The notes under the pieces: generated by a model
Database searches by the model: none
The model's input: the letters and a program-made list of their open reading frames with translations, nothing else
What the model was told of the DNA's origin: nothing
Assembly: GCA_965223665.1 (NCBI GenBank)
Contig: OZ245011.1
Span: 3,648,001-3,712,000, forward strand
DNA from: Nitrospinaceae bacterium
GTDB taxonomy: Bacteria; Nitrospinota; Nitrospinia; Nitrospinales; Nitrospinaceae
DNA: 64,000 nucleotides
Direction: 5' to 3'
Program-made: the position numbers and the translations under genes
Shown here: in pieces, positions 22,610 to 35,221 of the stretch
Layout: every line of letters begins with the position of its first letter
Numbering within the stretch: the stretch's first letter is position 1

Positions 22610-22957
22610 ATGGGTAATGAAGCAAATTTTGATGAGCAATTCGACTACACACTGACTTTATTAAAGAAAATCTGGGTTGTATTGGTGATTGGGCTGTATG
22701 CGCTCTGTTTTTATAATGAATATAAATTTCCGGGAGCACACATTCAACCCTTAAAAGGTGAAGAGATATTGTGGAAAATGGAGCGGGTCTTATATTTTGG
22801 GTTGCTCGGAGTTGGGGTGCTTACAGATATTGTTCAAATGCGATTAGACAGAAATAAAGCATTTCTTTTTTTATTCGCTTCGCTAATTTTGGGAGGGCTT
22901 TCCACTTCGATAGGGGCTCTGCATTTTAAATCCGTACAATTTTTATTTGGAAATTAA
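22610..22957 (+). CDS. Hypothetical membrane protein (3 TM)
   Basis: 115-aa ORF with three hydrophobic segments. Confidence 0.65.
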   Translation: MGNEANFDEQFDYTLTLLKKIWVVLVIGLYALCFYNEYKFPGAHIQPLKGEEILWKMERVLYFGLLGVGVLTDIVQMRLDRNKAFLFLFASLILGGLSTSIGALHFKSVQFLFGN

Positions 22958-23046
22958 GAGAGCAAAAGATTTATATAGGAATGCATTCTATATTTAAAGC
23001 GATTTATTTTTGAATTAAAATAATTCACAAAAAAATTTTAGAAGAT

Positions 23047-23119
<73 letters not shown>

Positions 23120-23177
23120 TCTGTTATCTGGAAGGGGGCTGTAGGGGCTGAGATTTTATTAGTTCAAGCTTTGATCT

Positions 23178-24647
23178 TTATGGATTAAAATCCTTAATGA
23201 GATGAATCACACTCGCATCCATCATCTCCATCAATGGTCCAGGATACAAACCAATACCCAATACCAGGAAAGCCAATGGAATCAACGCAGCAAGTTCCAA
23301 ATTCGATAAATCCGGGAGCATTTTTGCGGTTTCTGTTTTAGGCTCCCCTAATGCCACCCTTTGGAGCATCCACAACATATAAGCTGCAGCTAAAACAATA
23401 CCGCCCATAGAGATAAGAACTATTGGAAAATTGACATAGGAAGTTCCTACCAGTACTAAAAACTCACCAATGAAATTGCAGGTACCTGGTAGTCCAAAAG
23501 CAGCGACTGAGAACAAAAAGAAAAATGCAACAAATCTTGGCATGGGTTTATGCAATCCGCCGTAGTCCGAAATAGCTCGACTGTGAGTGCGGTCATATAA
23601 TTGTCCAACAGCAATAAACAAAGCGGCCGTAGTAATTCCATGGTTGAACATTTGCAAGACGGCTCCCTGAATGCCCTGATTATTAAACACAAAAATTCCG
23701 AGTGTGACAAAACCCATGTGAGAAACTGAAGAATATGCCACGAGTTTTTTAAGGTCGGATTGAGCTAAAGCCAGATAACCCCCATATATAATGGCTATGA
23801 CTGATAACCACAAAGTGTATGGTGCGAATTGTGCCGAAGCCTCCGGAAACATTGGCAAACAAAAACGTATAAATCCATAACCTCCCATTTTTAAAAGCAC
23901 ACCAGCCAGAATCACACTGCCAGCAGTCGGAGCTTCCGAGTGTGCGTCAGGGAGCCAAGTATGAAAGGGAACCATTGGCATTTTGATGGCAAAAGCCAGA
24001 AAAAACGCCAGGAACAACCAGAATTGTGTAGTGGAGGAATAAGTTTGTTTGGATAAAACCAATAGATCGTAGGTATGTCCCCCATTTAGATAAATGCCTA
24101 ATATACCCACCAGTAGCAGTAAGCTTCCAGTTAGACTGTACAAAACGAACTTTAGTCCGGCAGCTATACGATTTGGTCCTCCCCATAGAATAATCATAAA
24201 ATACATGGGAATCATTGTTACTTCCCACAACATGAAAAACAGGAATAGATCCAGAGCGGTAAAGACCACAATCATGGCCCCTTCAACTAACAATATTAAC
24301 GAGAGATAGGCTCTTACTCGATTGGTGATTCCCTTCCACGAGCAAAGGACACAAATTGGGCAAAGTAGAGCTGTGAGCATCACTAATAGAATACTGATGC
24401 CATCCACACCAACTGCGTACTGGATATTAAAAGTAGTCATCCATTCCACGCGTTCCACGAACTGCATGTCTTTTAGAGAGGGATCAAAATTCCTCCAAAG
24501 AATTAGCGAAAGGAAAAACACCACCAATGTGATGCACAAGGCAATTCGTCGAATCCATTCTTCATTACGCACGAAAGCCAGAATGACGATTCCTAAAAAA
24601 GGAACGGCAATCATCCCGCTAATCAGATGATCCATTAAAATAGCCAT
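23178..24647 (-). CDS. NuoM-like antiporter-like membrane subunit
   Basis: VGVDGIS, WEVTMIPMYF, KMPMVPFHTWLPDAHSEAPTAGS, AYSSVSHMG, FIGEF. Confidence 0.9.
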   Translation of the reverse strand: MAILMDHLISGMIAVPFLGIVILAFVRNEEWIRRIALCITLVVFFLSLILWRNFDPSLKDMQFVERVEWMTTFNIQYAVGVDGISILLVMLTALLCPICVLCSWKGITNRVRAYLSLILLVEGAMIVVFTALDLFLFFMLWEVTMIPMYFMIILWGGPNRIAAGLKFVLYSLTGSLLLLVGILGIYLNGGHTYDLLVLSKQTYSSTTQFWLFLAFFLAFAIKMPMVPFHTWLPDAHSEAPTAGSVILAGVLLKMGGYGFIRFCLPMFPEASAQFAPYTLWLSVIAIIYGGYLALAQSDLKKLVAYSSVSHMGFVTLGIFVFNNQGIQGAVLQMFNHGITTAALFIAVGQLYDRTHSRAISDYGGLHKPMPRFVAFFFLFSVAAFGLPGTCNFIGEFLVLVGTSYVNFPIVLISMGGIVLAAAYMLWMLQRVALGEPKTETAKMLPDLSNLELAALIPLAFLVLGIGLYPGPLMEMMDASVIHLIKDFNP

Positions 24648-24771
24648 TTTAGTATCCTCCTGCCTACGAAATAAACAATCTCTCGGATTTTTATATTAGC
24701 TCATGAAAAATGAAGTAAGGCAAATTGCAACCAGATTCTTTTATTATAACTGGGGTACAAATCGGAAACGT

Positions 24772-26868
24772 TTAAACCAAAAAATACAATAGACCAGTCA
24801 TTGCCACTAACCAAAATATCATTACTAATAACTGATGTTGGATAGTACGGGATTCCATTTCTCGTAGCATTTGTCCTGCCGCAACGCGTTCTGCTACTTT
24901 CCCAACCCTTTGATCCAACCAGTGAATGTCAATAATTCGCCATAACTTCCCGGCCAAATACACAGTAATGTTGGCCAAAGAATGGATAAAATGATCTATT
25001 ACCCTTATATCCATAAAACGCCACAACCACCTGGCAAAACTCACAGTATAAGTGGCCATAGATCCGATGAAACCATCAATAACTTTTACATCAACATTTC
25101 GCCACAACCAATGTGCGACCCTAATAGAAGGGTTTACAATAAAGGCCTCATAGAATTCATCAAAATACCCTTTATTCCAAAACAAGACATACAATCGACG
25201 GTTTTTTACGTTGGCATGTGAGGCTTGAGGTTTGGTTTGAGAATGTTTTGAGTATGCATAGAACCATCCTGCTACTGCTACGCCGAGAGAAACTACCAGC
25301 CAAAAAGAAAAGTTTTGTTCAACTGGGCCTTTCCCCAAATCAACTCCTGGAATGGTTAAGGCAGGAGCAAGAAAATTGGCAAACCAACTCCAAAAAAATG
25401 TCAATAACCCACCTACCAAAACCGTAACCAGAAAAAGGCCAGATAAAATTGACATATTTAAAAACTGAGGCCTAATTGATCGCATTTCCAAACTTTGTTT
25501 TCCTGAAGCAGGTAAGTACGTCTTTGGACCATGAGCAAAAAGCGAGATGATGCTTTTAAAAATATATTGAGAGGCGATAAATACAGTAATCAAGCCAATG
25601 ATTTTGAATCCTATCGAGGCTGACGCAAACCCTGTGATTCCCCATAAATATTCATACGATCCGGAAAAAAGTACTAACGGCGGGAGTAAAGCCAATAAAA
25701 AAGCCCCGCCATATAGGATACCCATGCCCTCATTGGTATGAGGTTCATGATCCTCATGCCCAAGTCCCTGTTCCACCGATCGCAAACTATTACCCGTAGA
25801 CAGAAAAAAGAAAGCTTTGTAGCACCCATGAGCAAGAAGATGAAAAATGGCCACTGCAAAAGCACCCAAACCGCAAGCCATGACCATGAATCCAATTTGA
25901 CTAATGGTGGAATAGGCTAAAGACTTTTTGATATCAGATTGAGGCAAGGAAACTATTCCGGCAAATATAGCGGTTGTAGCCCCAATTATGGCAATGAACG
26001 TCATGGCGGATGGAGAAAGGATAATCAATGGGCTCAATCGTACCAACAAAAAAGGACCTGCATTTACCATAGTAGCGGCATGAATAAGGGCTGAAACTGG
26101 AGTCGGAGCTTCCATCGCCCCCGGCAACCATACATGAAACGGTATTTGTGCTGACTTTCCCATAGCTCCCATAAAGAGGAAAAAAGGAATAAGAGTTAAG
26201 GGATATATATGAAATTCCAAGCCCATCCATCCTAAGATATTGATAGTATGGTTTTGCATGCTTTCAGCCTGGCCAAGAATAGTCGGAATATCCAGAGTTC
26301 CAAAGGTAAAGAAGGTTAAAATAATGCCAAAACTTAATCCGACATCCGCGATTGAGTTTACGAGAAAAGCTTTGGTGGCTGCGCGGCCAGCGGAAGGTCT
26401 TTCCGCTGCGTGAGAAATCAAAAGATAGGAACAGATTCCCATGACTTCCCAACTTATCAATAGCATCAAAAGGTTGCCACTCATAACTAACAAAATCATA
26501 GAAAAAGTAAACAACGCAATGACAGCAAAAAAACGATTATAGGTTGACTCTCCAATCATATAACGAGAAGAATATACATGCACAACCCCACTTACTCCGG
26601 TGACTAAGAGTAAAAGCAAAACAGTCAGTTGATCAACAAACAGAGTTAGATCAATGGTCAGCGAACCAGAGTGAAACAGTCGGTAAAGGGAAATGGTAAA
26701 CGATCCATTTTTTAACACTTCAATGAATGCGGCAACAGATAACGCAAAGGAAATTCCAATGGCAGGAATTCCAATACGGTGACCGTTCTCCCCCCAACGA
26801 CGTCCCCCAAGTAAAAGAATGAGAGAAGCTAGAAAAGGAAGCAAAGGAATGAGGACGTAAATTGCCAT
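24772..26868 (-). CDS. NuoL/MrpA/DabB-like antiporter-like subunit with extended lateral helix
   Basis: SWEVMG, KSAQIPFHVWLPGAMEAPTPVSALIHAATMV, AYSTISQIG, HLLAHGCYKA; C-terminal 3x27-aa repeat. Confidence 0.9.
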   Translation of the reverse strand: MAIYVLIPLLPFLASLILLLGGRRWGENGHRIGIPAIGISFALSVAAFIEVLKNGSFTISLYRLFHSGSLTIDLTLFVDQLTVLLLLLVTGVSGVVHVYSSRYMIGESTYNRFFAVIALFTFSMILLVMSGNLLMLLISWEVMGICSYLLISHAAERPSAGRAATKAFLVNSIADVGLSFGIILTFFTFGTLDIPTILGQAESMQNHTINILGWMGLEFHIYPLTLIPFFLFMGAMGKSAQIPFHVWLPGAMEAPTPVSALIHAATMVNAGPFLLVRLSPLIILSPSAMTFIAIIGATTAIFAGIVSLPQSDIKKSLAYSTISQIGFMVMACGLGAFAVAIFHLLAHGCYKAFFFLSTGNSLRSVEQGLGHEDHEPHTNEGMGILYGGAFLLALLPPLVLFSGSYEYLWGITGFASASIGFKIIGLITVFIASQYIFKSIISLFAHGPKTYLPASGKQSLEMRSIRPQFLNMSILSGLFLVTVLVGGLLTFFWSWFANFLAPALTIPGVDLGKGPVEQNFSFWLVVSLGVAVAGWFYAYSKHSQTKPQASHANVKNRRLYVLFWNKGYFDEFYEAFIVNPSIRVAHWLWRNVDVKVIDGFIGSMATYTVSFARWLWRFMDIRVIDHFIHSLANITVYLAGKLWRIIDIHWLDQRVGKVAERVAAGQMLREMESRTIQHQLLVMIFWLVAMTGLLYFLV
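24880..25122 (-). repeat. Three tandem 81-nt (27-aa) repeats in the NuoL-like C-terminal amphipathic helix
   Basis: The Trp codon of LWR falls at 25102, 25021 and 24940, a period of exactly 81 nt. Confidence 0.9.
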
Positions 26869-26876
26869 AATTTCCC

Positions 26877-28346
26877 TTAAAGACCTGGTGGTAGAGCTTG
26901 ATTTAACAACATTTGAACAATGGGAGCACTGAATATTCCAAGAATCATAATTGCGGCGGACGTGATTCCAAGAGTCAGTTTAAATGACAGTGGAATTGCA
27001 CCAAATGTTCCGTCGGATGGAGTTGATGATTGACGGAAAATCCGCTCGAAGAGTTTGACGAAATAGGCAAGCGTCAAGAGCGTAGAAAGTAGTACTGCAG
27101 CGACTGAAAAATAATTGCTTTCATCCAACGCTCCAAGAATAATGTACCATTTGCCAAAAAAACCTCCGGTCGGAGGTAGGCCAATCATGCCCAAGGCCAT
27201 AACCACTAAAGACCCGGTAAGCCAGGGAGCTTGTTTTCCTACACGCCCTATATCATCAATAGTTCTGACCCCATAATGGCAAATTGCTACACCGGCTAAA
27301 AAAAACAGGGCAGCCTGCATAACAGCATCGTTCAATAAATAAAATACTCCTCCGGCAAATCCCGTTGGGTTTCCTTGACTGATGCCAATCAGAATGATGC
27401 CAATGTGCGAAATTCCTCCATAAGAAAACATCATTTTTATATCCCGCTGGGCCAAGGCCAGGCTTGCACCTATGACGGCAGCTAAGGCACCAACAACTTC
27501 CATCAGAACCAAAATAGGAATATTGTAAATAACAATCGATGCATTTAAGACCCAATAGATTATTCTGACCCACGCTAGAAGTGCTACCTTGGTGAGGAGA
27601 GGAGCCAAAATAGGTGAAACAGAATCAGGAGCATAAGTGTAGGCATCCGGCATCCAAGCATGAAACGGTACCAGGGCCATCTTGATTCCCAGGCCAATAA
27701 ACATAAACAGCAGTCCCCCCACTAAAGCTTTTGAACCTAATAATAAGGGAAGTCTTTCGGCTATATCCGCCATATTCAGAGTGCCGCTCACCGCATAAAG
27801 ATAACTAACCCCTAGAAGATAAAGGGAAGCGCCGAGTGTTCCTAAGATAAGATAACGGAATGCGGCAAACAGAGCTCTTCCGCCTGCGACACCGACAAGT
27901 GCGTAACTTGAGATAGCCGCAACTTCTAAAAATACGAATAGATTGAATAGATCCCTGGCGAAAACAATGCCGGTTAAAGCTGATATCAATAGCAAGATCA
28001 ACGTATAATAATGAACGATCCGGCCACCCAGAGCCTTGGGTGAAGTTGTTCCTGTAAATATCACACCCAGCAAACCCAAAGCACTCAGCAATACTAACAT
28101 GACACTCGCTAATCCATCAGCCACCCATTCAATGCCGAGGGGTACTGTCCAACCGCTAAAAACATAACGCACCTCTCCATGATTAGTGACGTTGTAAAGA
28201 TTCCAAATTGAGACAAGAACCATAACTGCTAGAATTACCAAAGAAATTCTGTGGCTCCAGTGACGATGTTTTAAACAAACCACTGGCATAGAAATGGCGG
28301 CGAATAATGGAAGTAAAAATAAGATTGCAGGAAGTTGGTGATTCAT
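26877..28346 (-). CDS. mrpD: Mrp antiporter subunit D-like
   Basis: FSGWTVPLGIE, DLFNLFVFLEV, GTLNMAD, PFHAWMPDAY, GLPPTGGFFGKW. Confidence 0.9.
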   Translation of the reverse strand: MNHQLPAILFLLPLFAAISMPVVCLKHRHWSHRISLVILAVMVLVSIWNLYNVTNHGEVRYVFSGWTVPLGIEWVADGLASVMLVLLSALGLLGVIFTGTTSPKALGGRIVHYYTLILLLISALTGIVFARDLFNLFVFLEVAAISSYALVGVAGGRALFAAFRYLILGTLGASLYLLGVSYLYAVSGTLNMADIAERLPLLLGSKALVGGLLFMFIGLGIKMALVPFHAWMPDAYTYAPDSVSPILAPLLTKVALLAWVRIIYWVLNASIVIYNIPILVLMEVVGALAAVIGASLALAQRDIKMMFSYGGISHIGIILIGISQGNPTGFAGGVFYLLNDAVMQAALFFLAGVAICHYGVRTIDDIGRVGKQAPWLTGSLVVMALGMIGLPPTGGFFGKWYIILGALDESNYFSVAAVLLSTLLTLAYFVKLFERIFRQSSTPSDGTFGAIPLSFKLTLGITSAAIMILGIFSAPIVQMLLNQALPPGL

Positions 28347-28720
28347 TCTAATTTTTCAAGAATATTTTGTTCGTCAAGGCTTCCATATTTTCGATAGATA
28401 GCTGCGCACAGGGCTAATCCTACGCCCGTGGTCGCCACGCCGACCACAATAGCAGTCAGCGTCAAGACATGAGGTAATGGATTTGCGTAAGTGGCCGCTT
28501 GCACAGGCTCCGAGGTGGACAAAAGTACAGGAACGGTTGCGCCCTTCTTCGCACTGATAGATACTAGAAAAAAAATCACGCTGGTTTGCACTAAATACAA
28601 CCCGATAAGTTTCTTTACAAGATTGTATCTTGTAACCATTATATAAAATCCCCATAGAAAAAGGATAACGAACGTCAAAAAATTAGGTCGCTGAAGAACG
28701 GCCAAAAATGCATCAACCAT
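28343..28720 (-). CDS. mrpC: Mrp subunit C-like
   Basis: NLVKKLIGL, NPLPHVLTLTAIVVG; probable start MVDAF at 28720. Confidence 0.9.
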   Translation of the reverse strand: MVDAFLAVLQRPNFLTFVILFLWGFYIMVTRYNLVKKLIGLYLVQTSVIFFLVSISAKKGATVPVLLSTSEPVQAATYANPLPHVLTLTAIVVGVATTGVGLALCAAIYRKYGSLDEQNILEKLE

Positions 28721-29165
28721 TAATTGAATCCTCAATAATTTCTTCGGCAGATAAGCTGAATACAATAGAAACGGCTGTTACCGCAACGTCTATTGCCACG
28801 CCGACTTGTGTGAGCACAATTCCCAATGATCTTCGAGAAGCAGTTTCAAGGCCTGGGATTTCTAAATTTGCATAATTGAGAAATTCTCCACCACCGATCA
28901 TACATAAGCCTCCCACACCTGCGTAAATCAACATTCCAACTCCATCTCCATGTAAAACACTTTTAGCTATTTGACCCCTGGAGCCATCATGACCAAATAT
29001 CAAAACCGATAAAATCATTCCTGTGCCCAAAATCACCCCACCCACAAATCCACCTCCTGGTCCGAATTGACCGAAAAACAATACATAGATTCCAAAAATT
29101 TGGACCACAGGAATCAGAAAGCGGCCTAGAGTTTGAACAATAATGCTATCGTGTTGGCGTATCAT
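28713..29165 (-). CDS. mrpB: Mrp subunit B (MnhB domain)
   Basis: GQFGPGGGFVGG; probable start MIRQH at 29165, coupled to the upstream stop. Confidence 0.88.
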   Translation of the reverse strand: MIRQHDSIIVQTLGRFLIPVVQIFGIYVLFFGQFGPGGGFVGGVILGTGMILSVLIFGHDGSRGQIAKSVLHGDGVGMLIYAGVGGLCMIGGGEFLNYANLEIPGLETASRRSLGIVLTQVGVAIDVAVTAVSIVFSLSAEEIIEDSING

Positions 29166-29683
29166 TATGTTTGCCTCCTGAGAAGTAGAGCGCAAGCAAT
29201 ACCCGCTGCAAAAATCACCACAGTTTCGATCATCGTATCAAGTGATCGATAGTCCATCAGTACTGAAGTCACAACATTCGGAGTGTGAGTATCCTGATAA
29301 CTTTGTTCGAGATAGGTAGGTGAAATATGAACACTCGCTGGAGAATTCGGGTCCCCATAACCTGGAAGATCATTTGCGGCATAGAGTAATAGAAGCCCCA
29401 AAAGAGGAAAAACAATTAAGGTTGTTAAAGAAGGCGGAGGGCGCCGGAGTCGAGTGTCTTTGGGAGCAGTTCCAAATAGAGTCAATAGAAATAGAACGGT
29501 AGCTAATCCCGCTCCAACAACGGCTTCTACGAAGGCGACATCTACAGCTCCCAGCCATCCCCAAACCAGCGCGAGGAAAAAGCTGTAAGAACCCAATAGC
29601 AGAATGGCACTCATTAAATCCTTAACGAGGATGGCACCAGCGGCAGTAGCTAAAAGAAGTAGGAGTAAAGGAATTTCTATCAT
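29165..29683 (-). CDS. DUF4040 plus MrpB N-terminal (MbhD/E-like) subunit
   Basis: AVDVAFVEAVVGAG; PNVVTSVLMDYRSLDTMIE. Confidence 0.85.
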   Translation of the reverse strand: MIEIPLLLLLLATAAGAILVKDLMSAILLLGSYSFFLALVWGWLGAVDVAFVEAVVGAGLATVLFLLTLFGTAPKDTRLRRPPPSLTTLIVFPLLGLLLLYAANDLPGYGDPNSPASVHISPTYLEQSYQDTHTPNVVTSVLMDYRSLDTMIETVVIFAAGIACALLLRRQT

Positions 29684-29979
29684 GAGGATTCCCTTCGCCA
29701 GGGTTTTAAACCAGATCGGAGGGCTGCGCGCACCGTTGCATGTGCAATGCCAGGATTTAAAATATACAACAATACCAACACTACCAGAATTTTTAGCATA
29801 TTTTTTCCCAGTCCCTCATGCAAAGCAATTCCGATTAACATCAAAAAGGCCCCAATAGAATCTGTTAATGATACGGCGTGGGAGCGACTAAACACATCAG
29901 GTAATCGAATCACACCGATCGCCGCAACAATAAGAAAAAATAAACCTGCAATGATAAAAATAATGGAAAGTATATCCAT
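29680..29979 (-). CDS. mrpG: Mrp subunit G
   Basis: GVIRLPDVFSRSHA; NPGIAHA. Confidence 0.9.
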   Translation of the reverse strand: MDILSIIFIIAGLFFLIVAAIGVIRLPDVFSRSHAVSLTDSIGAFLMLIGIALHEGLGKNMLKILVVLVLLYILNPGIAHATVRAALRSGLKPWRRESS

Positions 29980-29980
29980 G

Positions 29981-30247
29981 CTATGGAAGCCCCTTTTCTT
30001 CCAAATATTTTGCCACGGCCAGCGCTCCTACTAAATTTAACAGAGCATACCCGGTGGAGATATCAATAAACATATCGACTCGATCAAAATAAATACCAAT
30101 AACAATAAGCAGAATAATTGCTTTTGTGGAAATGCCATTGAGACCCAACACACGGTCAAAAATTGTGGGTCCCCGCAGGACACGATAAAGATAGGCGCCA
30201 ATTAGAATAGCCAGCAATATTATTACGTAAAAGAGAAAAGGCTTCAT
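29981..30247 (-). CDS. mrpF: Mrp subunit F
   Basis: YRVLRGPTIFDRVLG; AKYLE. Confidence 0.9.
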   Translation of the reverse strand: MKPFLFYVIILLAILIGAYLYRVLRGPTIFDRVLGLNGISTKAIILLIVIGIYFDRVDMFIDISTGYALLNLVGALAVAKYLEEKGLP

Positions 30248-30750
30248 AAATCTGGCTCTACGTCCTTAAAAATATTTGCAATTTTATTTTCCATCTGTTT
30301 ACTTTCAACATCTTCACTTAATTCTTTATCCATTGCGTGAACGATAAGGTTATTGCCGTCAACTTCGGCAGTTATCGTTCCTGGAGTTAAGGTAATGGAA
30401 TTACCAAATAGAACCACGGCCCCGTGGTGACGCAATTTTGATTCCACAGAAATCAAATGAGGAGCAATTGGAAGTGAAGGATGCAAAATGAGTTTTGACA
30501 AATGCAGGCCGCTTTGTATGATTTTATAAAAAAGCCAAGGTATATAGAGGAGGATTCTAAACCACAAATTAAATTTAGGAACAAAAGGCGAATGACCAGA
30601 ATTGATCCAGGTCACTAAGAAAGAAAAAATAATTCCCAAAAAAAGGTGAATCCATTCAAAACTGGCAGATAATAAAACCCAAAACAAAAACAGTGAAAGG
30701 GTTTTTAAAAACAGGAATTTTGAGGATATTGGTCGAGATCGAATTGCCAT
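30244..30750 (-). CDS. mrpE: Mrp subunit E
   Basis: NSITLTPGTIT; LIVHAM. Confidence 0.9.
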   Translation of the reverse strand: MAIRSRPISSKFLFLKTLSLFLFWVLLSASFEWIHLFLGIIFSFLVTWINSGHSPFVPKFNLWFRILLYIPWLFYKIIQSGLHLSKLILHPSLPIAPHLISVESKLRHHGAVVLFGNSITLTPGTITAEVDGNNLIVHAMDKELSEDVESKQMENKIANIFKDVEPDL

Positions 30751-30871
30751 AATATTACCAGATACAATTTTGATTGAAGAATATCAGTGGTTTTCGATTT
30801 TTCCAAAAAAAACTATTTAAGGACTTAATTTGAAATTTCCAAACGCCAATATGCAATATTTATAATTCTAA

Positions 30872-33800
30872 TTATAAAACATCAACTTTTTCCCAGGTAG
30901 CATTTGGATTGTACCGATGAAACTCAAATTTATGGCAATCCAAAGCTACAAGATTTAACCATTCATTATGAAACAACTGTTGAAGAATCGCATGCTTTTT
31001 AATGATGGATGAGATCACACTTGGTATTTGTTCGATGATGGCTAAAAGTCGCATCGGTTCATGATAGTGTATTTTCCCATTATTAACTGTTTGTAAAGGA
31101 AATCCCATTTGCAAATCACTTTGGGTTCCCAGCATCATCCCAACACCCCCAACGACATTGTGTAACACCTTACTCGCACTGCCAAACTTATAGGGATCGA
31201 CAGCTGAAAAATAATAACCAGTATTTATCCATTCCCCAACAATTAACGGTGCGGTCATAATTTTTTCAAGAATAGCCCCTTCGGGATCAGCAATAGGATC
31301 ATAAGAATGCAAGAAAACTCGACCTCCTAAATCTAACCCTTTAGTCAGTTTTCGTCTTCCAATGAGAAATGCGCCATTGCCCGCTAACCCCCATTCTGGC
31401 CGAGTATTTGCCCAATCGCAACTTCGCTCGTCTACATGAGCAAAGGCCTCCTTTGGAGAAATTTTAGTTGGCGCACTGGGAATGCGTTGACATCTTTCAA
31501 GAGCCTGCTTTGCGCCAGCTTCTTCGAGATCTCTTCTTAAGGCCTGAATATCTTCTTTATGAGAAGCGGGGAATTCCTCTAGATCGTAAAACTCGACTCG
31601 ATCTGTTGTCGTATTATGTTTACCGGGAAGGAACCAGGTGTCGTCGGGAATAGGCAATCCTTTTTCATTGAGAATATGACGAACCTCAGGTTCATTCGCC
31701 ATTGCAGCAAAAACACGAGCATTTGCATCTCCTGGTCTTCCACCGCATGCTCCGCAATCCAAGGCCCCATAATAAGGATTATTATCTGTCTCACTACCGT
31801 GGCCACAGAGGCAAACTAACCGAGCAAAATTTTTAGTAAGCCCCATAGCACGCAAGCCATTTTCGACAAATGTGGCTCGTTCCTCAAGAGAAAAACCCTG
31901 TGAAAGCCCCTCAGGAATCCCTTCGGCATTCACTTCTCCAATTTCCGGGTCTTGTGGATTCGACGGAGTGGAAATTAAGATTTGAGTTGGAACCCTTTGT
32001 GTTAACCAACCCTCAATAGAGGAGGTTATTCCACGAAATGTTTTTTGGAATAAGGTCTTGCCTATTAATCCTAAACTAAAAAAGAACCCCATCACATCAA
32101 TCACCATCATCGACCCGATAGGATGATGTTTTAAATCGTGAAAAATATGGTGTCCCAGTTGGGTCCAGCGAGTACCAGATGAATATTTTTCTAACGCCGT
32201 TCTTTCTCCCAGCCGAGGTGATTCAGTCACCGCATGATTGGGTGTCAATAAAACCGGACATAAAGCGTCTCGAAGATTTCCATCAAAAGCTTGATGGCTA
32301 ATGGGAATTCCAAAAAATCCAGCAAACCCGAAGGTTTCATAAGGGCCTTGGGCTTCAAGATGACGACGAAACGATTCAGAACGTACATCAATACAAAAAA
32401 CCAGTTGAGCATGGGGGCGGATTTCCAATTCAGGTATCGTCCCGTGATGCGCAAAAATATTTTTTAGAATTTTCTGTCGAAAGGAATCTTCATATGCTTC
32501 AATCCATACCTTTCCATGCTGATCAGCAGGAAAGTGATCTAACCATTCTAATAACTTATGGGCATCAGTGATTGAGAGGGCTCCAACTTCTTTTGGAGAT
32601 AACTCAAGAAACTGTGCCAAATGAAATAATCGCCAAGCATGTCGACATTTCACCTTTTTGGTAGGATCTACGGACTGGGTTCCCTGCCCAATGCGTTGGT
32701 GGTATTCTTCGGATCGATTATTCCAATATGCGGTTAGTGCAGAAACAGTTCCGTCAATTCCCCATTCTTGTTTGCATTTGAGGTTGGTTAACTCTACTTC
32801 ATAGAATAAGCGCACTGCAAGATATTGTGTGGTGTCAATTGGGTGTTTTTGCTGTGCATGGTACATAGGGTGTTCCCCTAACCACCTTATGTATCTTGTC
32901 CAGCCGGGTAATAGCGAAAGTTGTCTTGAGAGATAGTCTTTCCATTGTTTCTTAGGAATTTCGAGTTGGTGTAAACTGGAATCAATTGCTTCCTCAGGAA
33001 CGGTAGAGAGACTTCCAACTTTTTGAGAAAAATCTTTTATTCCCAGAAGCTGACCAGAAAAATCTTTCTGTGCGAGGTTTTTCCATACTTGATAGAAACC
33101 TTCTTCCCGGCCAGGCATTTTCCAGCCAGCCAACCCTTCATCAACAAACGCCGTCACCCATTTTATAAGTATATTGTTGATTTGTTCAACCACTTCACCA
33201 TCAGTCAAGTCATCAATCCAATCACTGAGGGTTCTAAGTGACGGTAAGGAAATTGGTAAAGGCGTTTGCGAATCTGAATCTTGATGTGTATGAGATAATC
33301 CATTTGAATCCGTCAAACCTAAGGCGACACATACGCCTTCCCATAAACTTGACAGGTAAGTCTCTTCTGGATATTCCAGATGCTGTTCACATTCCTGGAT
33401 GGTTTTTTCAATAATTGACTTTCGGGAATCTTCAGAAAGATCCCGGCGAAACTGTTTAGTAGCACCTCCACCATTAAATTCCCAATCGAGTAGGGAAAAT
33501 GGCAATTCCTCTATGCCAAAAAGAAGGTGGATCTGCCAAACATCCTTAGCTGAAATTTTTCGGTCTCCAACCTCAATAAAAACTGTTTCATCAAAGTGAG
33601 GTCCCACTCGGGAAAAAGCACGCTCAAAATTTTCCTGGGTAATACGTCCATTTCTGTAAAATTCACGGTACTCATCATTTGTGAGATATCCATTTCCTCC
33701 AAGGAGGGTCTTGCCTTTTCGAACAGCTTGATCAAAAGATAAATATTCCAATCCATGGATCGGATTCTGAGCGACCATTGTCCTCATTGGCCAAAATGGC

Positions 33801-33886
33801 GCAATTGGCTCACTGGCGTCCAATATTAATTGCCGAACTTGATCAAGATCTTCTGGAGAAAGGGACTTCACAAAATTAGTACTCAT
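30872..33886 (-). CDS. dabA: DUF2309 / DabA (MpsB-like) beta-carbonic-anhydrase-like subunit of an inorganic carbon transporter
   Basis: IAPFWPMRTMVAQNP, FCIDVRSESFRRHLE, GHGS, LDCGACGG (predicted Zn ligands C/D/H/C), HNTTTD, RPEWGLAGN, MTAPLIV, HEPMRL. Confidence 0.93.
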   Translation of the reverse strand: MSTNFVKSLSPEDLDQVRQLILDASEPIAPFWPMRTMVAQNPIHGLEYLSFDQAVRKGKTLLGGNGYLTNDEYREFYRNGRITQENFERAFSRVGPHFDETVFIEVGDRKISAKDVWQIHLLFGIEELPFSLLDWEFNGGGATKQFRRDLSEDSRKSIIEKTIQECEQHLEYPEETYLSSLWEGVCVALGLTDSNGLSHTHQDSDSQTPLPISLPSLRTLSDWIDDLTDGEVVEQINNILIKWVTAFVDEGLAGWKMPGREEGFYQVWKNLAQKDFSGQLLGIKDFSQKVGSLSTVPEEAIDSSLHQLEIPKKQWKDYLSRQLSLLPGWTRYIRWLGEHPMYHAQQKHPIDTTQYLAVRLFYEVELTNLKCKQEWGIDGTVSALTAYWNNRSEEYHQRIGQGTQSVDPTKKVKCRHAWRLFHLAQFLELSPKEVGALSITDAHKLLEWLDHFPADQHGKVWIEAYEDSFRQKILKNIFAHHGTIPELEIRPHAQLVFCIDVRSESFRRHLEAQGPYETFGFAGFFGIPISHQAFDGNLRDALCPVLLTPNHAVTESPRLGERTALEKYSSGTRWTQLGHHIFHDLKHHPIGSMMVIDVMGFFFSLGLIGKTLFQKTFRGITSSIEGWLTQRVPTQILISTPSNPQDPEIGEVNAEGIPEGLSQGFSLEERATFVENGLRAMGLTKNFARLVCLCGHGSETDNNPYYGALDCGACGGRPGDANARVFAAMANEPEVRHILNEKGLPIPDDTWFLPGKHNTTTDRVEFYDLEEFPASHKEDIQALRRDLEEAGAKQALERCQRIPSAPTKISPKEAFAHVDERSCDWANTRPEWGLAGNGAFLIGRRKLTKGLDLGGRVFLHSYDPIADPEGAILEKIMTAPLIVGEWINTGYYFSAVDPYKFGSASKVLHNVVGGVGMMLGTQSDLQMGFPLQTVNNGKIHYHEPMRLLAIIEQIPSVISSIIKKHAILQQLFHNEWLNLVALDCHKFEFHRYNPNATWEKVDVL

Positions 33887-33917
33887 ATTTAGAGCGACAG
33901 TTGTCTATCTCAGAAAC

Positions 33918-33974
33918 AAAAAAAACCAACCGTCCCTCTATATCTACAATGAAATAGTTAGTAATACGGTTGGC
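33918..33974 (-). terminator. Leader terminator upstream of dabA
   Basis: GCCAACCGU...ACGGUUGGU stem running into an 8-U tract, about 30 nt before the dabA start codon. Confidence 0.75.
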
Positions 33975-33979
33975 TTGTG

Positions 33980-34036
33980 TTTTGGCTTATGCTGCAGTTA
34001 ACCTCGCAAACTAAACGAGTCGAACACCCTGTAGCC
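33980..34036 (-). ncRNA. Candidate Na+-I (DUF1646)/nhaA-I-type cation riboswitch aptamer
   Basis: CAGGGUG-UUCGA-CUCGU(UUAGUUU)GCGAG-GUUAACUG-CAGCAUAAGCC; GGGUG, AGGUU and 3' AGCC as I recall them for this RNA class; directly followed by a terminator and Mrp genes. Confidence 0.55.
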
Positions 34037-34424
34037 TAAACAAAAAACTGAACTCAAGCCTAGAGTGCCTATGTCTTTTTTTTTGATAACCAAAAGACAG
34101 TTTAAGTCTAGTCTTGATATGAAAAAAAAACAATAGTTTTTACAATTTTTTATTACCGCGTTTTTAAGATCAAATTTTTTCTTTGAAGAATTCATAAACA
34201 TATATTAATGGTCTCATATCCCCCTCACAAATAATTGAATAGCTTATAGAAGTAAATTTTTTCAGGTAGAGTTTAAGGAAGAAACTGAAACTTAACTTGT
34301 GATATAACTTAAGGGAGCAAGCCGCTTTGAAAGACCGAATGAGCTGTTTCCTTCAGTGGATGCTTTAAAATGAAAAATCTGGCTACAGTCACACTGCCGG
34401 GAAATTTAATGAGGAGAGAAACTT

Positions 34425-35009
34425 ATGAATCCGGGCGAAGTGCTTGACATCTTGGTAGCGGGAAACGAGCGATACCTGAATGGTAATACCCACAAACACG
34501 ATTTTCATGCAGAACGGGCTGAACTTGCACAGAGCCAACATCCTATTGCAGCAGTGCTTAGTTGCGCGGATTCTCGAGTTGTTCCACAATTCGCGTTTGA
34601 CCAGGGTTCTGGCAAATTGTTTGTTGTACGCGTGGCGGGCAACATTGCCACCACTTATGGGATCGCATCACTTGAATATGCTGTTGAATACCTCAAAACC
34701 CCTTTGATCTATGTCTTAGGACACACATCTTGCGGAGCGGTAGATGCAGCGGTTAAAGTGGTAAAGGATGGCGCAGAGTTTCCCGGGGAGCTTCCGGAGT
34801 TAGTTTCCTCTATTGCCCGTGCGGTGGATATCACTGGGTCAAATACGGAGGAAATTTTAGGAAAAGCCGTGCAAGAGAATGTTCGATTAACCGTTTCTAA
34901 ACTAGCGGACTCGAGTCAAATTATTCGGTCGCGTATGCAATCGGGAAACCTTCGTATTGTTGGTGGAATTTACGAACTCGCAAGTGGCAAAGTTTCCCTT
35001 GTGGAATGA
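34425..35009 (+). CDS. Beta-class carbonic anhydrase (no signal peptide)
   Basis: GNERY, SCADSRV, VRVAGN, GHTSCGAV; in-frame stop just upstream. Confidence 0.95.
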   Translation: MNPGEVLDILVAGNERYLNGNTHKHDFHAERAELAQSQHPIAAVLSCADSRVVPQFAFDQGSGKLFVVRVAGNIATTYGIASLEYAVEYLKTPLIYVLGHTSCGAVDAAVKVVKDGAEFPGELPELVSSIARAVDITGSNTEEILGKAVQENVRLTVSKLADSSQIIRSRMQSGNLRIVGGIYELASGKVSLVE

Positions 35010-35221
35010 GTGAGCAGATATCAAAATATAGATAGAGATTTCATCCGATATATCGACAGTTTGCTCACCAGCCAAAACATATTGTCAAAGTAAGGTAAGA
35101 AAAGATCCTAATCATTATGACCAGCCTTTCAAGAACCTGGTCCTGAGTTTTTTAATTCCCGGGTGCTTAAAAAAATAATCAATTAGATATAGGTTCTTTT
35201 TTTCAATTTACCAGGTTTGAA

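Follow-up and report, generated by a model that had tools for sequence, protein, structure and literature searches.

To our knowledge, DAB pumps are the simplest energy-coupled CO2 hydratases; they are candidate tools for endowing crops and microbes with a means of concentrating carbon, and their coupling was resolved structurally only in 2026. Here we describe a block of ten genes, headed by a gene for the catalytic DAB subunit (dabA), in a 64,000-nucleotide (nt) stretch of DNA from a Nitrospinaceae bacterium (assembly GCA_965223665.1, contig OZ245011.1, positions 3,648,001 to 3,712,000), which is referred to as the window and to which all coordinates of the block relate. The host is a marine nitrite oxidiser of the Nitrospinota with a genome of 4.35 Mb (98.6% complete). 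The ten genes lie on the minus strand between positions 23178 and 33886 in the order dabA-mrpE-F-G-MbhD/E-mrpB-C-D-NuoL*-NuoM*, where NuoL*, NuoM* and MrpD* denote the NuoL-like, NuoM-like and MrpD-like subunits of the block; the order E-F-G-(MrpA C-terminal domain)-B-C-D is that of group-3 or MBH-type systems, i.e. the Mbh order. We favour, with moderate confidence, the explanation that the ten products form a single DAB-type vectorial carbonic anhydrase on a three-channel, complex I-like arm that is devoid of a redox module. The block probably builds a large ion-driven pump for inorganic carbon and, judging by literature searches, seems to be a variant of DAB pumps that is undescribed in print.

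Among the closest described systems, DAB2 of Halothiobacillus neapolitanus (DabA2-DabB2, PDB 9rd0) and MpsAB of Staphylococcus aureus share with the block the PF10070 subunit with its four zinc ligands, an acidic residue in the finger of that subunit, and a membrane partner lacking the Lys/Asp pair of transmembrane helix 12 (TM12) and having a broken Arg/Glu ion pair, while the contact between finger and TM11 is predicted here. In contrast to these pumps, the partner gene of the block stands seven genes away from dabA and encodes a long lateral helix and a final TM helix, a NuoM-type, an MrpD-type and six small Mrp-type subunits are added, the finger residue is Asp rather than Glu, and DabA is without the insertion of approximately 70 residues that is present in the canonical DabA of the same genome. 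DAB1 of Thermocrinis albus (DabA-DabB-DabC; PNAS 2026, PMC13684180) is described as having a third membrane subunit beside the NuoL-like one, in the position of NuoM, as would be the case here; however, DabC is small, belongs to no Pfam family and is without channel residues, whereas the block has a full NuoM, a further channel and the small Mrp subunits.

Mrp antiporters (CPA3; PDB 6z16, 7qru, 7d3u) have counterparts in the block for MrpB, C, D, E, F and G and for the C-terminal domain of MrpA, but the place of the MrpA N-terminal domain is taken by a DabB-like protein of the NuoL type, a NuoM of the complex I type is added and a soluble enzyme is linked to the set. The same modular build, in which small subunits and a row of antiporter-like subunits are clamped by a lateral helix, is found in MBH and MBS (PDB 6cfw, 6u8y) and in the arm of complex I. 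Unlike these, the block encodes no NuoH/MbhM-like, NuoB/D-like, Fe-S or NiFe subunit, and the prediction places its soluble enzyme on the distal subunit. In the cyanobacterial NDH-1MS complex, the CO2-hydrating zinc protein CupA (with CupS) sits on the distal NdhF3/NdhD3 pair and is driven by electron transfer through the redox arm. CupA on NdhF3 may be the closest analogy for the working of the block, although CupA is unrelated to DabA and the block is without a redox arm.

DabA and its predicted partner NuoL*

All of the genes listed in the initial annotation were recovered by Pfam on the minus strand at the coordinates assigned to them, and the zinc-ligand motifs that it had described as intact in DabA were borne out. 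Alignment to DabA2 of PDB 9rd0, against which the protein scores 382 bits, assigns the ligands to C498, D500, H696 and C711, and these are invariant in 15 DabA orthologues. The hydrophobic finger spans residues 587–612 approximately, with Asp597 at the position where canonical DabA proteins of these phyla have Glu. Every Mrp-linked DabA that was aligned lacks the insertion of some 70 residues following the finger, while canonical DabA proteins, including that of the same genome, possess it; by its position, this insertion appears to match the flexible 'arm' of DAB1. A tree of 26 DabA sequences puts 19 Mrp-linked proteins (divergent types and one unlinked copy, discussed below, included) on one side of a branch with a support of 100, the comparison group being canonical DabA of the same phyla only. 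The block thus encodes a PF10070 subunit with predicted Cys, Asp, His and Cys ligands, together with a PF00361 membrane partner in the same apparent operon, which is the feature used as a DAB criterion in PMC13147460; this partner, NuoL*, is encoded seven genes downstream on the same strand.

Matches to solved structures place MrpD* closest to MBS and MBH (MBS 6u8y_H, 189 bits; MrpD 7qru_D, 172 bits; MbhH 6cfw_H, 172 bits), and both NuoM* and NuoL* closest to complex I. NuoM* scores 437 bits against the complex I NuoM 8qby_M versus 112 bits against MrpD, and is, by its sequence, a genuine NuoM. NuoL* scores 274 bits against NuoL, 137 bits against DabB2 and 127 bits against MrpA. The use of such phmmer bit rankings to discriminate DabB from NuoL was abandoned, as the canonical DabB of the genome itself scores 250 bits against NdhF/NuoL versus 150 bits against DabB2; since the ranking does not separate the two, a tree and shared insertions and deletions were relied upon instead. 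In a maximum-likelihood tree of 59 sequences, 14 NuoL* proteins form a sister group to 11 canonical DabB proteins (SH-aLRT 92), with NuoL1 and NuoL2 of the genome falling outside, a placement that is provisional and relative only to NuoL and DabB as the tree holds neither MrpA nor foreign NuoL sequences. Furthermore, alignment revealed that NuoL* and canonical DabB have in common a 12-residue insertion and a His-rich cytoplasmic loop that replaces a conserved NuoL motif. The Lys/Asp pair of TM12 is missing from NuoL*, and the Arg/Glu ion pair has another residue in place of its Arg (alignment, 54 orthologues). According to the DAB2 preprint, DabB2 has likewise lost Lys399/Asp400, which are replaced by Glu444 of the DabA finger, and the broken Arg/Glu pair is characteristic of DabB2. 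NuoL* therefore carries DabB traits (no TM12 Lys/Asp, a broken Arg/Glu pair and an acidic residue, D597, in the finger of DabA), and an N-terminal antiporter-like domain of the MrpA clade was not found among the Mrp-order genes of the block, the only candidate being NuoL*, which groups with DabB. E141 of NuoL*, the Glu of TM5, was considered as a sign of coupling to the neighbouring subunit, but was dropped as such because the partner Arg is replaced and the pair is broken as in DabB2.

The physical association of the two proteins was modelled using residues 1–470 of NuoL* and 480–1004 of DabA, each with its own alignment. The predicted complex attained an ipSAE score of 0.79 (0.78–0.79 across three runs), as against 0.00 for the best of three controls; 58 of 80 solved complexes, and two of 110 mismatched pairs, attained the mark applied to this score. 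The runs had at least 81% of their contacts in common, with a partner pLDDT of at least 82. The predicted interface lays the DabA finger (587–612) on residues 339–363 of NuoL*, including the conserved His343, His347 and Lys351, and both of the 2026 DAB structure papers (PMC13684180 and the DAB2 preprint) place the contact between DabA and DabB in the same region. The model thus supports binding of DabA to NuoL*, and of the large complex envisaged in the initial annotation it is this pair that is predicted to touch. The annotation had suggested that DabA may stand on the arm in lieu of a redox head; this position is not upheld, as both the likeness to DAB and the predicted interface put the dock on the distal, DabB-like NuoL*, opposite the end at which a redox module would be attached.

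NuoL* is larger than the partners of known DAB pumps. Rather than the short partner of approximately 550 amino acids (aa) without a long lateral helix, in an assembly of two to three subunits, the block encodes a NuoL* of 698 aa, the C-terminal part of which is drawn out into a long helical extension that ends in a further TM helix. The canonical DabB of the genome does not possess this extension, and the DAB2 preprint reports the long axial helix as absent from DabB2. In the AlphaFold model, helices span residues 569–618, 621–645, 648–661 and 665–697; the model is poor (mean pLDDT 59.5). The extension consists of 27-residue repeats, with about three copies in the protein of the window and about one to four across the aligned orthologues. 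The repeat is visible at the protein level only, no DNA-level tandem repeat having been found in the lateral-helix region. A lengthening unit of some 26–27 residues in the C-terminal amphipathic helix has been described for NuoL of 2M complex I (Nitrospira) and for MrpD2 of 'Ca. Manganitrophaceae' (PMC9040806), as in NuoL*; the unit of NuoL* differs from the units described there in being tandemly repeated in a variable number of copies.

Regarding the remaining channel subunits, at least 95% of 54 orthologues retain E142, K222, K253 and E395 in NuoM* and E141, K222, K253 and K399 in MrpD*. We take these to be the TM5 Glu, TM7 Lys, TM8 Lys and TM12 Glu or Lys with the roles known from complex I. 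In addition to their antiporter domains, NuoL* has the NuoL/ND5 and NuoM* the NuoM/ND4 N-terminal domain in Pfam. Pfam also identified the Mrp subunits B, C, D, E, F and G and the C-terminal domain of MrpA in the block, the last of these in the fused MbhD/MbhE-like protein, the NuoJ-like counterpart of that domain, which also gives a weak, below-cut-off match to PF00499.

Organisation of the block and its recurrence among relatives

The initial annotation described the genes from mrpE to nuoL as tightly coupled. This holds: given the ATG starts that most orthologues favour for mrpB and mrpC, the junctions from mrpE to nuoL* measure between -8 and +8 nt (8 nt between mrpD and nuoL*), and wider gaps are seen only between dabA and mrpE (121 nt) and between nuoL* and nuoM* (124 nt). 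Similarly, the reported absence of hydrogenase, Fe-S and NADH-module genes stood up to a Pfam scan of the ten genes and eight neighbours, in which no hydrogenase, Fe-S, NuoH-like or NADH-module domain, and no family of a redox module (NuoB/D/H-like or MbhJ-N-like), was detected. A scan for promoters and terminators returned no more sites than shuffled sequences did, and none within the 121-nt or 124-nt gap.

The linkage of dabA to genes in Mrp order and to NuoL-like and NuoM-like genes, noted initially in this one locus, was found to be conserved across genomes and phyla. The counts that follow describe a pattern and do not amount to a statistical test, as the relatives are not independent. 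In four families of the order, 15 of 16 loci carry all ten genes in the same order at 45–97% aa identity; in the sixteenth (G011), dabA is split and NuoL* is without a match at a coverage of at least 50%. A scan of one genome per species with the alignment of the DabA clade produced 73 loci, 42 of which have at least 9 kb of DNA downstream of dabA. All nine downstream genes are present in 38 of these 42. Of the remaining four, three carry a canonical dabB-dabA block ahead of mrpE, with part of the module lying beyond the fetched DNA, and the fourth (L101, an Acidimicrobiia record) has two genes below the thresholds. The 31 shorter loci comprise 13 that follow the gene order without a break for as far as they extend and 18 that end at dabA without downstream DNA. 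Complete blocks occur in records assigned to Nitrospinota, Nitrospirota, Acidimicrobiia and Planctomycetia, in which binning errors are possible, and an Acidobacteria contig contains dabA and the next seven genes before it ends.

The reciprocal search, in which 80 metagenome contigs were retrieved through the MbhD/E-like protein, identified dabA in all 21 contigs with at least 4.6 kb of upstream DNA and a partial dabA in 34 shorter ones, 25 being too short to tell, so that dabA lies upstream in 55 of 55 informative contigs; these are close relatives only (82–93% identity) and add contigs rather than diversity. In a hand tally of 120 Nitrospinota genomes, the MbhD/E marker (at least 55% identity) is present in 38, the DabA clade (at least 70%) in 41 and both in 36. 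Regarding the exceptions, the contig of G015, one of the two marker-only genomes, ends inside the marker gene, and four of the five DabA-only matches lie at the edge of a contig. Taking the marker at any match, 46 of the 120 genomes, and 32 of the 57 high-quality ones, carry it. Additionally, in a sample of 251 Nitrospirales genomes the marker was detected in 93, of which 86 have a DabA match (E <= 1e-130): dabA ends 1.1–3.0 kb before the marker in 62, the two are on one strand 3.0–13.6 kb apart in 16, they are on different contigs in seven, and in one complete genome (G142) they are separated by 260 kb. Two of the seven marker-only Nitrospirales genomes were fetched, and in both a divergent DabA of 1259–1265 aa is encoded directly upstream of mrpE. 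The 23 DabA-only Nitrospirales genomes comprise nine with low-identity matches (38–45%) to other DabA types, seven with an N-terminal fragment only, two with split genes and five with partial matches or not followed up. Six of the seven N-terminal fragments contain an in-frame TGA, these remnants being 54–57% identical and located in genomes where the Mrp module was not found (e.g. L122 8420-9877 in G158, and L127 in G176). In genomes without a detected module, the gene of the DabA clade is thus often a remnant. Because the block recurs as a unit across loci, the arrangement is far beyond chance, and the sequence features argue for one assembly over a chance neighbourhood.

Canonical DAB genes were also sought in genomes with an Mrp-linked DabA. 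A stand-alone DabB was not found in any of five such genomes (G121-G124 and G142), in which the best DabB-like matches are NuoL-type genes of 33–49% identity, including that of the block itself; a second DabA was not shown in G121-G124.

A putative ion-driven carbon pump and competing explanations

From these features we infer a single complex, a direction of ion flow and a role in carbon uptake, the DabA-NuoL* contact being a modelled prediction. By analogy with the solved structures of Mrp, complex I and DAB, MrpE, G, F, B and C and the MbhD/E-like protein would be located at one end of the arm, followed by MrpD*, then by NuoM* and finally by the DabB-like NuoL* at the distal end, from where its lateral helix would run back along the neighbouring subunits. 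A NuoL-type subunit forms the distal end of the arm in complex I and in Mrp alike, and NuoM* and MrpD* would adjoin NuoL* much as the M and N subunits adjoin L in complex I. DabA would be seated on the cytoplasmic face of NuoL*, with the finger bearing D597 beside H343, H347 and K351 of TM11. Ion flow through the three antiporter-like channels, possibly with H+/Na+ exchange in the Mrp part, would be transmitted to NuoL* and there gate the buried zinc site of DabA, whereby incoming CO2 would be hydrated irreversibly to HCO3-, as proposed for DAB1 and DAB2. The HCO3- would be supplied to a nitrite oxidiser fixing carbon by the reductive tricarboxylic acid (TCA) cycle, which is given as the carbon fixation route of these nitrite oxidisers in the papers cited here on them. 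Only the homology of the small subunits to Mrp and the reported saline habitats of the carriers suggest that Na+ may be a coupling ion. A bolder and speculative version, which we consider rather unlikely as a whole, would make the block a redox-free counterpart of NDH-1MS: Na+/H+ exchange at the Mrp end would drive three serial proton channels that draw the hydration proton from the zinc site of DabA, at a higher ratio of ions per CO2 than in DabAB, such that energy-starved nitrite oxidisers would accumulate bicarbonate from the micromolar CO2 of seawater, while a new leader resembling a riboswitch, responsive to inorganic carbon or Na+, would switch a regulon of SulP, DabA and Mrp.

In the case that the single-complex explanation is correct, a three-channel complex I-like arm would drive a soluble enzyme other than a redox module, and the block would constitute a missing link between DabB, NuoL and MrpA. 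For Nitrospina and lineage IV Nitrospira, both the way in which carbon is acquired and the presumed salt-tolerance antiporter would then have to be reread, and the 'orphan' DabA genes reported in Nitrospira would be explained. The 2026 survey of reductive TCA autotrophs states that one DabA gene of Nitrospira moscoviensis and of N. tepida 'lacks a companion gene' with transmembrane helices; such genes have probably been called companion-less because the NuoL* partner stands seven genes downstream. A published link of DabA to Mrp-type genes was not found, although supplementary figures (COGNAT Additional file 1, PMC7784846 Fig. S8 and PMC12342949 Fig. S15) may show the neighbourhood. The original DAB preprint mentions that genes whose operons were divergent in structure had been left out of its DabB set, and the COGNAT paper reports operons that begin with ybcC and contain NuoM and SulP genes.

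A number of observations weigh against a single complex. In G142 (L123, L124), dabA and the nine-gene module are not only 260 kb apart but on opposite strands. The 'type B' modules (L037, L058, L061, L081, L099 and L125) have a DabA 67–80% and a NuoL* 59–72% identical to those of the window, but small subunits and an MrpD of only 44–62% identity. Among the phylogenies of the antiporter-like subunits, the NuoL* tree disagrees with the MrpD/NuoM* tree; given this disagreement and the type B identities, the block is a mosaic. The NuoL* of type B is also some 55 residues shorter than that of the window and has the fewest repeats. As the number of repeats varies among orthologues with an identical gene set, the length of the helix does not count subunits and the argument from it is softer than in complex I; moreover, the quality of the AlphaFold model of NuoL* does not allow a fold search, and only its helix boundaries were used, with caution. 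The score of the predicted complex may reflect resemblance to solved DAB complexes. The E-to-D gene set is that of the MbhA-H module of MBH, which works with one antiporter-like subunit, such that the Mrp part need not require NuoL*. The two wider gaps are AT-rich and could hold internal promoters. Finally, the MrpE-like and MnhB-like proteins are the only such matches in the genome, and a sole Mrp-type system in a marine organism fits a plain Na+/H+ antiporter, as does the association with saline habitats drawn in published comparative work.

It is conceivable, with a real but clearly minor chance of being correct, that the block encodes two machines in one regulon: a DAB1-like trimer of DabA, NuoL* and NuoM*, with NuoM* at the position of DabC, and a separate MBH-like Na+/H+ module. 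The two would cooperate through the ion circuit only, e.g. by way of a Na+ gradient for a bicarbonate symporter of the SulP/BicA type, or of disposal of the hydration proton. DAB1 is described as a DabA-DabB-DabC heterotrimer, in which DabC is aligned with the NuoM helices that adjoin NuoL (PMC13684180). The composition of the E-to-D set, with its Pfam matches to both MbhD and MbhE, the mosaic history in which the small-subunit block diverged independently of DabA and NuoL*, the unlinked genes of G142, the variable repeat number and the presence of the RNA leader (see below) before SulP genes also speak for separate machines. Conversely, in every locus seen the seven Mrp genes stand between dabA and the other two genes of the putative trimer, mrpD is spaced 8 nt from nuoL* as opposed to the 124 nt between nuoL* and nuoM*, and the long helix and terminal TM helix of NuoL*, an extension that the canonical DabB of the genome does not have, would be without a role in a trimer. 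Furthermore, all MBH-like modules known to us depend on a partner that contributes a lateral helix or an anchor. The alternative raised in the initial annotation, a stand-alone Mrp antiporter next to an ordinary DabAB, is weakened, but retains some likelihood in view of the unlinked genes of G142 and the partly separate history of the small subunits.

It is improbable that the block is an ordinary Mrp-type Na+/H+ antiporter for salt or pH homeostasis, in which NuoL* and NuoM* would be additional MrpA- or MrpD-like subunits and DabA a free or loosely attached neighbour. This is nevertheless the published view, and the absence of a second Mrp system in the genome agrees with it. The genome paper of Nitrospina gracilis presents the cluster as a putative eight-subunit Mnh-type antiporter for salt tolerance; the paper on 'Ca. 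Nitrospira alkalitolerans' describes a group-3 Mrp with two downstream NuoM/NuoL-like genes, regarded as extra mrpA/D-like genes, beside bicA; and a 2025 comparison of Nitrospirales follows this interpretation, sees in the cluster an adaptation of lineage IV to marine life, and uses neither 'DAB' nor 'carbonic anhydrase' in its main text. The 2026 survey suggests that the Nitrospira DabA without a companion acts alone, yet it also states that DabA subunits without a membrane partner have shown no activity. However, the module is almost never found without the Mrp-linked DabA clade, or vice versa, and NuoL* has DabB-specific traits and a predicted interface with DabA. In addition, only about one third of the sampled marine Nitrospinota genomes (38/120) carry the module, which is thus not a general requirement of marine life in the phylum.

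A reverse, energy-conserving or pH-regulating device, in which CO2/HCO3- interconversion by DabA drives or modulates ion export, is very improbable, since CO2 hydration yields little free energy and characterised DAB complexes are reported to consume membrane potential and to be sensitive to uncouplers, even though the COGNAT paper, at a time when the function of DabA had yet to be established, put forward YbcC/COG3002 as the driver of an export of ions via NuoL homologues and lists operons with several membrane subunits, and though the conserved charged residues are kept in all three channel subunits.

RNA leader, flanking genes and further DabA loci

A conserved RNA leader precedes dabA, in which a stem-loop leads straight into a terminator-like hairpin and a U-run (Table 1). 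It scores 74.8 bits (E 8.5e-16) under the covariance model R1, which was built from 14 seeds. Across 14 sequences, changes on both sides were seen in 8 of the 12 pairs of helix 1, and the covariation of 0.285 compares with 0.177 +/- 0.018 in shuffles, none of which (0/500) reached it; sliding the partner strand by 1–3 columns lowered the paired cells from 92.5% to 26–44%. The terminator-like hairpin is invariant. A search of Rfam 15 over window positions 22900–35100 (E <= 1, permissive filters) matched no family other than tRNA. In 63 sources, R1 gave 57 matches at E <= 0.01, of which 53, the seeds included, are full-length and on the sense strand: 21 precede dabA, 18 precede mrpE (one scored on the next gene), 13 precede a SulP-family gene just upstream of dabA and one precedes a CitMHS-family gene. 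Further copies are located, among others, at L056 7612-7734, L060 13148-13275 and L124 5564-5689. In the Nitrospinota, the window included, the leader was seen only before dabA, which fits a single transcription unit here, and the genome itself has one strong copy; a second match of 28 bits just after a gene for an AMP-binding enzyme looks like a terminator only and was discarded. By the placement of its copies in the Nitrospirales, the leader appears to mark sulP, dabA and the membrane module as one regulon. It precedes dabA and the module separately in G142 (32.6 and 96.7 bits, respectively), and still stands before the dabA remnant of L122. The leader, which may be a riboswitch or a protein-binding attenuator, and its terminator probably control transcription of the genes downstream, and this common element provides a testable handle on the signal that controls inorganic-carbon uptake in these organisms.

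Table 1. Features of the block and its surroundings, by position in the window. Pfam assignments of the ten block genes all exceed the curated cut-offs; the likely starts of mrpB and mrpC are the ATG codons favoured by most orthologues, whose lengths were compared.
Feature	Position	Strand	Size and assignment
NuoM* gene	23178-24647	-	489 aa, NuoM-type antiporter-like; PF00361 264 bits, PF01059 30.6 bits
NuoL* gene	24772-26868	-	698 aa, DabB-like, NuoL-type; PF00361 191.7 bits, PF00662 54.1 bits
Lateral-helix repeat region	~24790-25150	-	C-terminal part of the NuoL* gene
MrpD* gene	26877-28346	-	489 aa, MrpD/MbhH-type antiporter-like; PF00361 184.9 bits
mrpC/NuoK-like	28343-28765	-	PF00420 80.6 bits; likely start ATG 28720, giving 125 aa
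mrpB-like	28713-29195	-	PF04039 (MnhB) 73.6 bits; likely start ATG 29165, giving 150 aa
Fused MbhD/MbhE-like	29165-29683	-	172 aa; PF13244 55.7 bits, PF20501 36.3 bits
mrpG-like	29680-29979	-	99 aa; PF03334 72.8 bits
mrpF-like	29981-30247	-	88 aa; PF04066 53.3 bits
mrpE-like	30244-30750	-	168 aa; PF01899 112.9 bits
dabA	30872-33886	-	1004 aa, beta-carbonic anhydrase-like catalytic subunit, Mrp-linked clade; PF10070 871.9 bits
RNA leader	33910-34053	-	Predicted stem-loop, terminator-like hairpin and U-run; ends ~24 nt before the dabA ATG
Beta-carbonic anhydrase	34425-35009	+	PF00484 125.9 bits; divergent from dabA
tRNA-Lys (CTT)	23046-23121	+	Convergent with nuoM*, marks the end of the block

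The beta-carbonic anhydrase gene that the initial annotation had pointed out as divergently transcribed is genuine, but was rejected as a member of the system, as its adjacency to dabA was, with the query used, found again only in a relative of the same genus (L033/L074). Other flanking genes encode a peroxiredoxin, a transglutaminase-like protein, a short-chain dehydrogenase, a TPR protein, an FKBP isomerase and a lysyl-PG-synthase-like membrane protein. Downstream of nuoM*, near the tRNA-Lys gene, an open reading frame of 115 aa without a Pfam family occupies positions 22610-22957 (+).

The genome of the window contains two complex I gene sets and a second DAB locus (G000:C1:1522276-1528773; L133 4276-10773), which encodes a DabB (566 aa), a 410-aa protein without a Pfam family that is possibly DabC-like, and a DabA (1082 aa), followed by a CitMHS/TrkA_C transporter gene. 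By its gene content, this locus has the known DAB layout and is of the same general type as DAB1. The two DAB loci lie side by side in some Nitrospinota (L035/L049, L048/L090, L063), and in the Nitrospirales loci L065, L089, L105/L130 and L129 the Mrp-linked dabA is separated from mrpE by a canonical dabB-(410 aa)-dabA set that occupies the opposite strand. A gene for an HtrA-like protease (Trypsin_2 and PDZ; L125 12769-14310, minus strand) lies between dabA and mrpE in a single Nitrospirales genome. Further DabA types were seen as search rows in G061 and G095 (Nitrospinota) and in G143, G256, G292 and G304 (Nitrospirales), among them one of 999 aa with 47% identity and another with open frames of 1454–1482 aa that possibly represents a DabA-DabB fusion.

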